From Eledone cirrhosa (Eukaryota), in assembly GCA_964016885.1 (NCBI GenBank), contig OZ024756.1, positions 31,062,001 through 31,126,000 of the forward strand: a stretch of 64,000 nt of DNA, given 5' to 3'. The notes beneath the pieces were generated by a model, which saw nothing but the letters and a program-made list of their open reading frames with translations, was not told the origin of the DNA and ran no database searches. Below are positions 17,415 through 58,946 of the stretch, in pieces. The position numbers and the translations under genes are program-made. Position 1 is the stretch's first letter; each line of letters starts with the position of its first letter.

Positions 17415-17622
17415 AAGAAAATGTATGACCCCGGCGGCAGAGCTCAGGCCGTTTCGACGGCTATTTCTGGCTATTTCTAGTCCAGTGGTGTTTAAGTGTG
17501 GTAAGGAACCTGATGGACCATAACGCACCAAAGTACTCAATACTTAGGGTAGTAGAGTGGGTAATAGGAACGAGTAGGACCCCGACGACTGAGCTCAAGC
17601 CGTTTCAACGGCTAATTCTGGA
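17415..17622 (-). mobile_element. Family C (HHR 3'-half element): short fragment 17415-17470 plus long-arm copy 17497-17622
   Basis: tgtggtaaggaacc..ggaccataacgcaccaaagtactcaatacttagggtagtagagtgggtaataggaacgagtaggaccccgacg..gctaattctgga. Confidence 0.85.
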
Positions 17623-17635
17623 TTAAATTTAAGCA

Positions 17636-17760
17636 AAGATTAAAGTTTAAGCAAAGAATCGCTGCTTTCACACTTAACGGTTCTTATATAACTGATATAT
17701 ATTTATCCTTATCGAGTCCTCTTTGGATTTTAGTCTTCAAATTTATTATTATTACTATAT
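17636..17760. mobile_element. Family D copy
   Basis: gattaaagtttaagcaaagaatcgctgctttcacacttaacgg...tttggattttagtcttcaaatttattattattacta. Confidence 0.7.
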
Positions 17761-17782
17761 ATATCTATATCTATATATAAAT

Positions 17783-17965
17783 GAACAAGTAAGACCCCGA
17801 CGGCAGAGCTCAAGCCGTTTCGACGGCTAATTCTGGACCAAAATAATCGGCTTGAGCTCTGCCGTCGGGGTCTTACTTGTTCCTATTACCCACTCTACTA
17901 CCCTAAGTATTGAGTACTTTGGTGCGTTATGGTCCAACTGGTTCCTTACTACATTTCCTTCGTTA
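17783..17965 (+). mobile_element. Family C fold-back copy (arms 17783-17817/17848-17882 plus tail)
   Basis: gaacaagtaagaccccgacggcagagctcaagccg / cggcttgagctctgccgtcggggtcttacttgttc, then tail to ttccttcgtta(TA)n. Confidence 0.85.
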
Positions 17966-20289
17966 TATATATATATACCAGAATATGGATACAGTTAGAA
18001 ACTGGTTATACCATTACTCAACAGTCAGTGTGTATATATCCTGTGTGTCAGATAACATGGCTAGATGGTATGCATATGCATCTGTTCATTATTGTGTGCA
18101 TCTGTTTGACAGAATGCTACGATATTTTATTTAAGATAACGAGATGCAACAGTGCAGAGCCGAGTGTTGACGAGAGAAGCATTCACAGACATAAATAGAG
18201 CCAGCACAGTTAATATTTCTTCACTTACTGGAAATAATGTACAAAGGTACGTGCTACCCGAAATTTTAATCAATCCCTACTGTTATCAGAACTTATATTT
18301 ATTTTATATTTATATATATATATATATATATATATATATATATATATATATATATATACAATTTTATTATTTTTACTATATATACATATATATATATATA
18401 CATATATATATATACATATATATATATACATACATATATATATATACACATATATATATATATATATATATATATATATATATATATATCTACACTTATA
18501 CATATATATAATACATATATATATATTTTTTTTTTTTATATGTTTGTATGTGTGTATATATATATATATATATATATATATATATATATATATATATATA
18601 TATATATATATATATATATATATATATATATATATATATATATATATATATATATATATATACATATATATATGTATATATATATATATATATATATATG
18701 TATATTTTTCTATTTTTGTTTACGAGTTCATACTGAAAGCTAAGCTAAGCCTAAGCTCCCTTAACAATTTCATGCCATGAAGAATTTTCCTAGTTTTCCT
18801 GATGCAACAAGTTTTGTTTCTGTTTCAATGGATCGGAGCTTATATAGCCGCATAGCGCGAGTAAATTGGATTTTCTCTCAATACATAAAAATTTATGTCC
18901 CTTTTGCTCACTTATACGTGGCAATATCGGAAGGAACTCTCTATGTTGGCGCATGCGACAGATAAGATATAGTTACTGTCATTACAGAAAGAAAAAAGAA
19001 ATTCTCACTGAAAAACAATAACACAATAAGGACAATATAGAAATGAGTTATTTTTATTCTTTTGTTTTCATTTCCTTTCAATAGTATATCCTTTCCATTC
19101 ACAAAATATTTCCTGTCGGAAGATATATTGGAATGGCGTCGGCGACAGTAGAAATTGAAGTTAAGCAATCAAGAAAGATATAATCTAACGAACGCTTAAT
19201 GTTCTCTATCTATCGTCTATCACACGATATTGCTAACCATCAATCCAGCCAGTTACCAAACCAGCCAGCCAGCCTATCAGCGAGCCACCACCAAATTGAT
19301 ATATAAAAGATGGAGAGTTTAAAGTTATCTTTATGGAAATACATGCGATCAACATGACAATTGGGATTGAATATATATTTACAGAGTGCACAAGTTTCTG
19401 ATGAAGTAATAAACAGCTGGGATATCAGATTCTTCTTAACGACAAATTCTTTGAAACAAATCCCAGAATGGCACTAAACTGTCCGAATTGAGAATAACTT
19501 TTCATTAAAAAGACACTCATGTAAGTTAGGGGAAGTTTCAGAAATAACTTTCTAAGAAAAGAGATCAGCAAAATATACCGATGATAATGAAGGCAAAGGA
19601 ATATTAACCCGAGCAATAGTCACTTAACCGAAGATCATGCCTTGAATATAAATGGTAAATACATTAATACATTAGTAAGATACCAGTTGGTATGACTATA
19701 AATCTATTAGAAGCACCATGAACCGCCATATTGCGTCTGTTGGGGGAAATTTAAGCTGGACATGGAGATGGGCATGTAGATAGAAGTATTTATGAGAGTG
19801 GCCTCTGCAAATGTTACTAACAAGTTTCAAGTGAACCGGCGGTTATTGGAGAAGCCACTTGCTCACACAGCTACACATATGAAGCGACCCTGAAATCACA
19901 CAACCACACCTTCTTCTATGCAGAATTACAGTAAACAAGAACCTTCCTCTCTATCATCAAGTAATTTCACTACAGCTAGAGATAATCCCCATTTATTTAT
20001 ATGTGTAAATATACATATATATACACACACACACACATATATATATATATATATATATATATATATATATATATATATATATATATATAGATAGATATAG
20101 ATATATACATGTATGTGTTTGTATGTCTGTGTGTGTGTGTGTGTGTATAAATATAGTAATAATATAAAATGTGAAGACTAAAATCCGAAGAGGGCTCGTA
20201 AGGATTATAGATATAAAAAAATATATATATATGACTGCAATGACTGAATTTTAACCATCTACTTTGTCAAGGTATGTCAAGCATCATCT

Positions 20290-20356
20290 TATTTTATCTG
20301 ATGAGGAGGTACTGTTAAAGATAGCTCAGAACCTCTGAAATATGTATAATAAAATA
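20290..20356 (+). ncRNA. Type I hammerhead ribozyme motif in a solitary element (~20232-20500) next to (TA)n
   Basis: tattttat CTGATGA ggaggtactgttaaagatagctcagaacctct GAAA tatgta TA ataaaata. 8-bp stem I, stem II ggaggt/acctct. Confidence 0.85.
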
Positions 20357-56486: not shown

Positions 56487-56960
56487 AGGGCGGTGGATTG
56501 GCAGTATCGGTAGAGAGTCGGACGCCTTGCTTTGCAACATAGAGTTACGGTCCTATATGATCTGAATTCAAATCCCGTCGAGATTAACTTTGCCTTTCAT
56601 CCTTACGGGGTCGATAAAATAAAGCACCAGTAATGTACTGTGGTCGGATTATTCCACTTTCCCCTCCCCCAAGTTGCTGTCTTTGTGCCTATACTAGAAG
56701 TCATTGTACTGGGTAAATGCTGGCCTTGTGCCAAAAGTAGAAACAATTATTATATATATGAAGCAGGGCGGTTGATTGGCAGCTTTGGTAGAGAGTCGAA
56801 CAACATGCTGTGCAGCATAGAGTTACGGACCTTTACGTTCTGAGTCCAAATCCCGCCGAGGTTAACTTTGCCTTTCATCCTTACGGGGTCGATAAAATAA
56901 AGTACCAGTAATGCATTGGGATAATTGCTGGCCTTGTGCCAAAAGTAGAAACAATTATTA
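56487..56960 (+). mobile_element. Two tandem SINE family 1 copies (56487-56750, 56766-56960)
   Basis: Two heads gggcgg(t/tt)gattggcag, central domains and tails. Confidence 0.9.
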
Positions 56961-57825
56961 CACTTATGATAACGGAAGTGGATTGGCAGAATCATTAGAG
57001 AAACAGATATCATGTTTACGGCATAGAGTTGCGATCCTTTACGTTCTACATACATACATCCATACGTATGTACCGGCATCCATGTAAACATAAAAATAAA
57101 ATCTTCAGAATATAAAATGGATGAATATATTCGGCACATAGTTATCGAAACCGCACCAAATACTAATAGTATAACATGGTAAATTTCACAGACATACCCA
57201 GCACCGATGTCAAATTAAATGGTAAAGTATATGTTGTACATTTTTCAGTGAATATAAAAGAAAATTATCTTAAATTCAAATTTGTAAAATTTTCTAAAAT
57301 TCATTTATTGTTACGCAATATTGTGGAAATTAAATAATATTTACATTTTCTTTGAAGTAAAAATAGTAAAAACAAAAAGTAAGGGGAAAATTGATTTAAT
57401 CAATTTTAAAATGTTTAAAAAAATGTTAAATGTGTGTAAAAGTAAGATGAAAATAGCCTAAATCAGATTTATATTTTTCAATTTTCTGCAAAATGAGAAA
57501 ATTAAACAAAAAATTATATCTAAATTCTATTTTCTATTGTTGAATACTTTATAGTTCATTATCATCATCAGAATATATATATATATATATATATATATAT
57601 ATATATATATATATATGTGTGTGTGTGTGTGTGTGTGTGTGTGTATATATACATATATATATATATATACATATATATATATATGTATGTATCTATATAT
57701 ATATATATATATATATATATATGTGTGTGTGTGTGTGTGTGTGTGTGTATGTATATATACATATATATATATATATACATATATATATATATATATATGT
57801 ATGTATATATATATATATATATATA

Positions 57826-58177
57826 TCATCATCATCATTTCATCATCATTTTATTTTACGTCCGCTTTTTCCCTGCTTGCAAGGGTGGGACGGGAACTGA
57901 TGCTGGCTTGATTTCTACAGCTGGATGCCCTTCCTAACACCAACCTCATTTACAGTGAGTGCTGGGTGCTTTTTTGCCGTGGCACCTCCACGACCACTTT
58001 GCAGTGGAATGATAGGGACCCCAGCCCCTATCATCTCATTTCTACAGCTGAGTAAACTGGAGCAATGTGAAATAAAGTGTCTTGCTCAAGGAAACAACAC
58101 ATCACCCGGTCTGAGAATTGAACTCACAACCTTTCGATTGCAAGCCCAATGCTCTAACCACTAAGCCATGTGCCTCC
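57826..58177 (-). mobile_element. SINE with family-2 tRNA/CORE-like head, different 3' body (gttggtgttaggaagggcatccagc) and (GAT)n tail
   Basis: Head ggaggcacatggcttagtggttagagcattgg..gagttcaattctc..ttccttgagcaagacactt. Tail (CAT)n on plus strand at 57826-57849. Confidence 0.8.
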
Positions 58178-58191
58178 TATATATATATTTA

Positions 58192-58383
58192 TTTAATATA
58201 GATGAGTCTCTACAGGACTAGAACTGTTTCATTCTTTAGAAATCATCAGGAATCTCTGATGATTTCTAATGAATGAAACAGTTCTAGTCCTGTAGAATCT
58301 CATCTATATTAAAACTGTTATACTCTGCTTTGTATTGAGTACCTTACTTACTGTGGTTACCTCCGATTCAACCCGGAATAAAG
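58192..58383 (+). mobile_element. Family E fold-back element: palindrome 58192-58313 plus ~70 bp tail, with HHR-like motif on both strands
   Basis: CTGATGA tttctaatgaat GAAA cagttcta GTC ctgtagaatc at 58256-58300, mirror at 58205-58249. Tail actgttaTACTCTg. TA repeats on both sides. Confidence 0.8.
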
Positions 58384-58751
58384 TATATATATATATATAT
58401 ATATATATATTGCTACCCGAGGATGTTGAGCAGATTTAGACGGGTTTCGGGTTGCCATTTCTAACATCATTAAAAGCCTGTCGGATTGTCCTAATATATA
58501 GTGATGGATTGATGGATGTAGATTTAGTAATTGAATGACACACAATGTCGGATGCACTATACTGTTTCGACAACATGTCATGTGTAGTATGCATTCAATA
58601 GTTTCTCTACTTTCAAAGAATTTCCTTCCTGAAAATTAATTTTTTTTTCAAAATTGGCTGCCCGAAATTATTCAGCTATTTGGAATTGTTTCTCAATTCC
58701 AGACACTGTCTAACTTACATCCTATGTATATATATATATATATATATATAT

Positions 58752-58946
58752 AACGAAGGAAAAGTGGTAAGGAAGCAGATGGACCATAACGCACCAAAGT
58801 ACTCAATACTTAGGGTAGTAGAGTGGGTAATAGGAACGAGTAGTACCCCGACGGCTGAGCTCAAGCCGTTTCGACGGCTAATTCTGAGTCCAGAATTAGC
58901 TGTCGAAACGGCTTGAGCTCAGCCGTCGGGGTCCTACTCGTTCCTA
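58752..58946 (-). mobile_element. Family C fold-back copy (palindrome 58831-58946 plus tail 58752-58830)
   Basis: taggaacgagtagtaccccgacggctgagctcaagccgtttcgacggctaattctg agtc cagaattagctgtcgaaacggcttgagctcagccgtcggggtcctactcgttccta. Confidence 0.9.

Follow-up and report, generated by a model that had tools for sequence, protein, structure and literature searches.

Half-hammerhead stubs, probably of a Penelope-like retroelement, in TA microsatellites of Eledone cirrhosa

The 64,000-nucleotide stretch of Eledone cirrhosa DNA analysed here (positions 31,062,001 to 31,126,000, forward strand, of contig OZ024756.1 in assembly GCA_964016885.1; referred to below as the window) is AT-rich, microsatellite-laden animal DNA. 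One of its repeat families, family C, carries the 3' half of a type I hammerhead ribozyme (HHR) motif. The core motif of this family, GCCGTCGAAACGGCT, matches the window at 10 positions with up to two mismatches, as compared to none in 100 shuffled sequences. BLAST and alignment of the window revealed 14 family C arms at nine places. Three of these copies, ending at 49914, 50139 and 50384, have identical flanks and thus represent a single insertion that was tandemly triplicated; the triplet includes host flank, and the tandem duplication came later than the insertion. Accordingly, 12 independent arms at seven loci remain. Family C is abundant: 19,674 restriction-site-associated DNA (RAD) reads of run X21 and 12,133 contigs of run X1 were aligned. 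All read data considered here concern one stretch and 4 of 23 runs. Subfamily C' is also common in the reads (2524 loose ends at 17570). Positions within arms are given relative to the G of GAAA, with negative values lying upstream in the sense orientation, or, for +20 and +97, relative to the predicted cleavage site behind GUC. The coordinates are collected in Table 1.

Family C arms contain three elements of a type I HHR, namely the GAAA, stem III, and a UH cleavage triplet, and the half-hammerhead is real. Judged by the hammerhead consensus, cleavage would be expected between 49876 and 49875 on the minus strand. The window arms lack CUGANGA (or a C3-G8 covariant of it) 5' of stem II, and stem I is represented by its candidate 3' strand GGGGTC alone. 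Neither CTGANGA nor a C3-G8 covariant core was detected within 110 nt upstream in the 10 core-bearing arms scanned, and neither was seen by eye in the remaining four. As they stand, the stubs fail the hammerhead test. An earlier, sequence-only reading of this DNA had likewise reported no copy with CUGANGA; the sense text quoted there is that of the copies at 49.8–50.4 kb, and the unit at 49779–49915 is indeed 137 bp long. GUC and GGGGTC are absent from the well-supported variable sites: the reads show variants at 17577 and 17572, and none at 17578–17586 among the 40 rows listed.

Pairing in stem III is register-specific, with 84.6% of cells paired versus 10–63% when the strands are slid. Of the stable 5-bp stem described earlier, the outermost pair (U-A) is kept in only 6 of 13 distinct rows and broken in seven (two rows cover the stem partly). 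The best fold of the half-motif is AGCCG-UCGAAA-CGGCU, in which GAAA is hidden. Type II and type III permutations were rejected, as neither the region downstream of GUC nor the antisense strand showed a core by eye. Within 49876–49905 (minus strand), there are two copies of AGCCGTC, one ahead of GAAA and the other at the cleavage site. This doubling would allow the CGGCU strands of stems II and III to exchange partners, giving a possible inactive alternative fold, and is a possible source of microhomology; the long arm at 17845 begins at this CGGCT. In the variant arm at 25696–25825 (minus strand), the stem III loop reads TAGCTA in place of GAGCTC with the palindrome kept, which is a single case.

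The 3' ends of family C are fixed at two positions, +20 in the short arms and +97 in the long arms. Both ends abut (TA)n, except that one arm ends in (CA)n. In X21, the +20 end (17564) recurs in 2933 reads, and the +97 end, or the nearby edge of the reference (17494–17497), in 795, 1032, and 7407 reads (9234 altogether); these reads run into (TA)n. The 77-nt tail lying between the two ends is present on one arm only. At 4 of the 7 independent loci (those starting at 17783, 25696, 25899, and 58753), an inverted, 5'-truncated copy is joined head to head, and four opposite-strand joints, each with few reads, were found in X21. The subfamily matches between both arms at all four fold-back loci, which gives no choice between self-copying and the joining of two cDNAs. 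The fold-backs at 25957 and 58887 had been recognized before and are confirmed, and those at 17783–17960 (asymmetric) and 25696–25860 (arm ends −2 and −8) had been missed, as had the arm cut within stem III (46231). The earlier list of copies was also incomplete in that the arm at 17415–17495 reaches about −40. Two fixed 3' ends, inverted arms, and the (TA)n target match the known insertion form of Penelope-like elements (PLEs). PLE insertions are described as often 5'-truncated, with an inverted copy, a one-sided tail, and a microsatellite bias (PMC8557442).

Table 1. Features of family C and of related repeats in the window (positions of the 64,000-nt stretch)
Feature	Position	Strand	Remark
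Reference 137-bp arm: stem II 3' strand (from −17), GAAA, stem III, GUC, stem I 3' strand, tail, then (TA)n	49779..49915	−	first triplication copy
Triplication copy 2	50004..50140	−	identical flanks
Triplication copy 3	50249..50385	−	identical flanks
GAAA (G12-A15.1) of the hammerhead 3' half	49895..49898	−	
Stem III (A-U + 4-5 bp), palindromic GAGCTC loop, ends in GUC	49876..49895	−	
GGGGTC, candidate 6-nt stem I 3' strand	49870..49875	−	subfamily variation starts one base on
One-sided tail, 77 nt, between the two fixed 3' ends (+20, +97)	49779..49855	−	
Tail hairpin: ACTC, inner stem-loop, 2-nt bulge, GAGT	49825..49850	−	
Short-type arm to about −40; triplet mutated to GCC; (CA)n at end	17415..17495	−	compared with X4 loose ends
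Long-type arm, other subfamily, in tandem with arm 17415–17495; native to about −23	17494..17629	−	reads and alignment
Asymmetric fold-back: short arm (minus) to about −21; long arm (plus) starts within GAAA	17783..17960	both	
Fold-back, variant subfamily C'; arm ends −8 and −2	25696..25860	both	
Fold-back: short arm (minus) to −18; long arm (plus) from about −16	25899..26092	both	
Lone long arm cut within stem III loop, (TA)n either side	46231..46340	+	
Fold-back: long arm (minus) from −14; short arm (plus) to −18	58753..58947	both	
Family F palindrome: GAAA, stem III, UA on both arms, no CUGANGA	43925..44171	both	
Tail hairpin outside family C	3640, 7369, 7579, 20613, 30139, 48221, 58322		

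The 5' ends were placed by eye against the native continuation seen in the reads. They lie at about −14, −15 (then to −40), −16, −17, −18, −18, −21, −23, −8, −2, +3, and +10, so that 8 of the 12 arms end within −14 to −23 and four end outside this interval. The sequence-only reading had all seven of its listed copies stopping at ..ttctg(ga). These represent five events, given the triplication, and a single stopping point for all copies is too strong a claim: the ends range from +10 to −23, with one arm at −40. The short motif is not a native end either. In X21, the sequence runs on past 'ttctgga' (1231 reads at 17624, or −18, versus 1895 at 17618, or −12), C is the base at 17623 (−17) in nearly all reads (824 of 847 and 384 of 400), and 17629 (−23) is the end point of 643 molecules. 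The window copies at 17622 and 17838 also track the native continuation for some 5–7 bases further. Two peaks of read ends, at 17617 (6851) and 17629 (643), were rejected as biological stops; they coincide with the only two AATT sites of the stretch, from which we infer that an AATT-cutting enzyme made them. The reach of X21 ends at −23, and any molecule that has the first AATT drops out at −12. The depth of contigs around the stop was left aside because it falls at alignment edges by design.

Longer forms of the repeat were found in run X4, which comes from a second organism. Two X4 contigs extend 125 and 129 nt, beyond 17628, and the 30 visible letters in each of them hold AAATAGCCG, the mirror of the stem II 3' strand, 43–51 nt upstream. 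Read by eye, AAATAGCCG is a 9-bp partner of that strand. Both contigs depart from a perfect mirror in the same way, with an altered upper helix and about five extra bases, which argues for a native imperfect hairpin rather than a fresh fold-back. On this comparison, stem II is likely to be a long native imperfect hairpin of about 53 nt with an internal loop; the visible X4 letters end at about −52, one or two bases short of the predicted closing pair. The perfect gacggctaattctgga/tccagaattagccgtc duplex that had been proposed as stem II is a fold-back product. In the window, the arm at 17415–17495 contains an upper helix with a GAAA loop, followed by TTAAACACCA, which resembles the X4 stem II 5' strand and after which the arm joins the 3' end of the next arm. 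This piece is either native, as the helix of its subfamily, or the product of a short snap-back after which copying went back to the template. No further pieces of the stem II 5' strand were found in the window.

The stops are spread along the upper 3' arm of this hairpin up to its apex, rather than sitting at the hairpin base. A simple block accounts for such a distribution less well than cDNA snap-back in which the imperfect apex is lost. The proposal that the ribozyme is lost in HHR stem II thus holds in outline: stops and fold-backs lie in the likely stem II and the longer X4 form pairs, but there is no single stop point.

The other PLE-like families in the window provide a comparison. A descriptor search revealed 11 intact type I cores, as opposed to 0–1 in each of 20 shuffles. 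Most of the intact cores sit in palindromes of one plan, namely (TA)n, short arm, tip, long arm with tail, and (TA)n. The core position is reached by 14 of 15 arms in families A, B, and D (12 intact) versus 0 of 12 arms in family C, and the spacers measure 12–36 nt in the former versus an inferred ~53 nt in the latter. Fold-back tips of the other families lie 4–132 nt upstream of an intact core. One family folds back at two points, 46 nt (7684–7778) and 85 nt (47946–48115) upstream of the core; at 7732, the long arm retains some 40 nt of additional native sequence, and a TTATAA microhomology marks the point where it rejoins. Since the tips vary (7732 versus 48030) and lie 5' of intact cores, fold-back is general and stem II is not required for it; the habit has also been described for PLEs. 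The idea that the stem II hairpin specially primes the inverted copy is therefore not upheld.

Family F had also been described as lacking CUGANGA, which is correct for both of its arms. In its left arm (43995–44046, minus strand), a possible three-way stem closes beside GAAA, with the tip at the expected CUGANGA site; this branched fold does not reach significance (z −0.5). A second long-stem case may thus be present in family F.

Palindromic PLE-like stubs with intact type I cores occur at 2798, 3747/3884, 7000/7264, 7683/7778, 20298, 47946/48115, and 58249/58256, and have stem II spacers of 12–36 nt and a palindromic stem III. The family at 58256 shows the pattern CTGATGAT...TGAAA, as in the Hydra-clade table of PMC8557442. 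A further repeat family, at 5980–6087, 17637–17768, 20146–20227, and 29271–29362, has a decayed hammerhead-like run (TGAAGA ...), one copy of which sits directly upstream of the arm at 17494–17629.

The tail of family C contains a hairpin (ACTC, an inner stem-loop, a 2-nt bulge, then GAGTAC) directly after the short end in all nine long arms. A general descriptor of this tail hairpin gave 16 matches in the window, seven of them outside family C, compared to a mean of 0.22 in 50 shuffles. In nine aligned rows, 92% of cells are paired, a level that none of 500 shuffles reached; the covariation was equalled in 1 of 500 shuffles, and the seven double changes in 2 of 500. The match at 20613, which is outside the derivation set, belongs to a (TA)n-flanked stub, and its outer pair is changed to G-C. 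The distance from GUC to the hairpin is 25 nt in family C versus 27–60 nt in five intact cores, and the predicted family C core would stand about 108 nt before the hairpin versus 104–107 nt in four of the five intact cores and 66 nt in one, a comparison made post hoc. The fold-back of family D at 30082–30219 has a long arm without the entire hammerhead, and the (TA)n-flanked stub at 20515–20660 has the tail hairpin only.

The same hairpin shape was found at the 3' ends of Hydra-2_Amil and Hydra-2_Ajap in the supplement of PMC8557442. A 10-letter search from Hydra-2_Ajap located it at the very start of Hydra-1_Ajap as well, with its own 5-bp inner stem. On the displayed ends, inspected by eye, the hairpin is partial in Hydra-1_Amil and Hydra-1_Crog and was not seen in Hydra-1_Obim. 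It is thus present in three of the six new Hydra-clade consensuses; the comparison covered the Hydra clade. Taken together, the hairpin occurs, with compensatory changes, in at least four repeat families of the window and in coral and sea-cucumber elements of the Hydra clade. No published description of this hairpin, or of a family-wide core loss, was found in the open literature searched.

Family C was compared with several known systems. It resembles the insertion units of endonuclease-containing PLEs (PMC3846280, PMC8557442) in its head-to-head arms, junction palindrome, one-arm tail, partial tandems, and microsatellite target. It differs from them in that the stubs are 80–200 bp long and show no open reading frame (ORF), the tail measures 77 nt rather than the 30–40 bp described, and all 12 arms end within the ribozyme. 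Family C is also similar to Hydra-clade PLEs (Craig et al. 2021, PMC8557442), a clade recognized by RT/endonuclease motifs (RWK, DKT, CxCX5C, and no CCHH), which have a (TA)n target, a type I HHR near the 3' end, and the tail hairpin in three of six consensuses; for this clade, a stem II of 3–7 bp plus loop and a stem III of 3–4 bp are listed, in contrast to the inferred ~53 nt of stem II in family C. The family C motifs had no exact match in the parts of the supplement to that paper. Type I hammerheads in the pseudo-long terminal repeats (pLTRs) of metazoan PLEs (Cervera and De la Pena 2014, PMC4209133) share with family C the location in a terminal repeat, the palindromic stem III loop, C at 11.1, and opposite-strand motif pairs 100–700 bp apart, mostly in truncated copies. 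The pairing of opposite-strand hammerheads from truncated PLEs has thus been noted already (PMC4209133). Those motifs are whole and were found with a CUGANGA descriptor; the core half is missing from every family C copy in the window, so that a search of this kind cannot see family C stubs.

Two further systems are informative. Purified protein of Poseidon PAc from Anolis cuts AT-rich DNA on both strands and uses two internal starts on uncleaved RNA (Frangieh et al. 2024, PMC11167929). The likeness proposed for family C extends to a tail defined by two internal reverse transcriptase (RT) starts at a stem-loop downstream of the HHR, an uncleaved RNA template, an AT-rich target, and cutting and extension of both strands. 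PAc differs in clade and sequence, its start lies in an AC-rich stem-loop inside the ORF, and the bulged ACTC/GAGT hairpin is not described in the available part of that report. Non-LTR retrozymes (bioRxiv 10.64898/2026.07.22.740005; PMC7229834) are, like family C, small non-coding PLE-derived repeats with type I HHR sequence, but they form head-to-tail arrays with a whole HHR in each unit, whereas family C is head to head or single and has no core. The paper on Octopus vulgaris repeats (PMC13282606) offered, in its available part, no sequences for comparison.

Taking these data together, we read family C as high-copy, 5'-truncated pLTR-plus-tail stubs of a PLE inserted in TA microsatellites, with copying failing in a long hammerhead stem II (probability about 0.7). 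The parent element was probably Hydra-clade-like, as judged from sequence features, namely the (TA)n target and the shared tail hairpin. In the proposed course of events, an RT-endonuclease would nick (TA)n and cDNA would start at the internal +20 or +97 position on uncleaved RNA. As the RNA is uncut, the cDNA would pass GUC and GAAA. In the ~53-nt GC-rich stem II, the RNA hairpin together with the self-complementary cDNA would favour release or snap-back. The inverted arm would then arise either by self-priming or from two cDNAs primed on opposite strands and joined; palindromic inverted PLE junctions have been read as self-priming (PMC3846280). Upstream of the stops, a stem I strand like GACCCC and CUGANGA are predicted at about −60 to −54.

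Several observations weigh against this reading. Neither CUGANGA nor a stem I 5' strand turned up in any sequence, and the X4 letters visible number 30 per contig. The support for stem II comes from two contigs of one run from another organism, and the 10-mer at 17486–17495 is expected about once by chance window-wide, with its position alone being informative. Covariation in stem III is not significant in the window (97 of 500 shuffles reach the score). About two-thirds of the reads passing −12 reach −18 and many reach −23, so copies may often exceed those in the window. The shorter arm reaches further upstream in three of the four fold-backs, a pattern that plain self-copying explains only with later trimming and that could otherwise come from the end-to-end joining of two cDNAs. 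Families A, B, and D were picked for having a core, which biases the 14 of 15 and makes the contrast suggestive and without a statistic. The tail-hairpin structure and its descriptor were derived from the same sequences, and one row was misregistered by the aligner. No RT or GIY-YIG ORF was detected: no Pfam family reached the cut-off in 150 of 235 low-repeat frames, which gave two weak matches below it. The stubs are too short to carry a PLE ORF.

Other explanations were considered. It is unlikely that the parent PLE RNA never had a working hammerhead and that the GAAA-stem-GUC appearance comes from CGGCU/AGCCG repeats in a structured 3' region. The missing CUGANGA, the fold that hides GAAA, and the lack of significant covariation in stem III would suit such a parent, as would the Naiad PLEs, which are reported to lack canonical HHRs and in some cases to have half cores (PMC8557442). 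On the other hand, the upstream partner closes a helix beside GAAA, as expected of stem II, the well-supported variable sites do not include GUC or GGGGTC, the tail hairpin elsewhere stands behind intact hammerheads, and canonical HHRs are reported for Hydra-clade elements. Less probable again is a short non-autonomous element that a PLE mobilizes in trans and whose 5' end, set by a transcript start or processing site of its own, would be defined near −15 to −23 with no need for stalling. Such an element would agree with the very high copy number and several subfamilies, with the 8 of 12 arms ending in a 10-nt window, and with the lack of a nearby ORF in the frames scanned. However, the ends vary from arm to arm, even between arms of one locus, and most informative reads pass the proposed end, with the X4 contigs and the arm at 17415–17495 extending further.

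The sequence-only reading had also offered trans-cleavage, with the half-ribozyme as a substrate of an RNA supplying stem I, CUGANGA, and the stem II 5' strand. All substrate-side nucleotides are kept, and the palindromic stem III loop would permit dimers (dimer model, PMC4209133). We consider this highly improbable, because a search of both strands of the window revealed no enzyme strand, the cleavage triplet of one arm is GCC rather than GUC, GAAA is missing from two arms, the half folds so that GAAA is hidden, and truncation accounts for the loss more simply. The half-ribozyme stubs are most likely catalytically dead debris.

Wider searches for family C and for ribozymes were negative. Exact-pattern scans of metagenome, viral, and genome contig collections gave no family C match. 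At the gathering score, Rfam reported no ribozyme in the window, with tRNA as the sole match. An E-value scan with Rfam showed no ribozyme family among the matches listed (150 of 450), nearly all of which were microRNA models on microsatellites and palindromes.

Three other repeats were observed in the window. A dispersed repeat, possibly a short interspersed nuclear element (SINE), is present in about 20 copies between 4322 and 62937 (for example, 9986–10240 and 42121–42380). A separate tRNA-like head lies at 58111–58168, within 58058–58168 (Rfam tRNA, 31 bits). Also, a 297-bp stretch at 40479–40775 has 51-bp inverted ends that are 88% alike and is possibly a miniature inverted-repeat transposable element (MITE).

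More tentatively, two cis-acting RNA structures could fix both insertion ends of these elements. The ACTC/GAGT hairpin would be the RT-binding signal for the two start sites, and the length of stem II would set where copying collapses, so that long-stem families (C and F) would shed the core in nearly every copy and become invisible to hammerhead searches. For the question of how PLEs make inverted arms and tails, and of what their hammerheads do, family C is a natural data set: it is high in copy number, comprises several subfamilies, and combines two exact 3' ends with 5' ends in one hairpin, so that self-priming can be compared with two-strand priming. The tail hairpin is a concrete candidate for the RNA signal of Hydra-like RTs and a marker for classifying ORF-less stubs.

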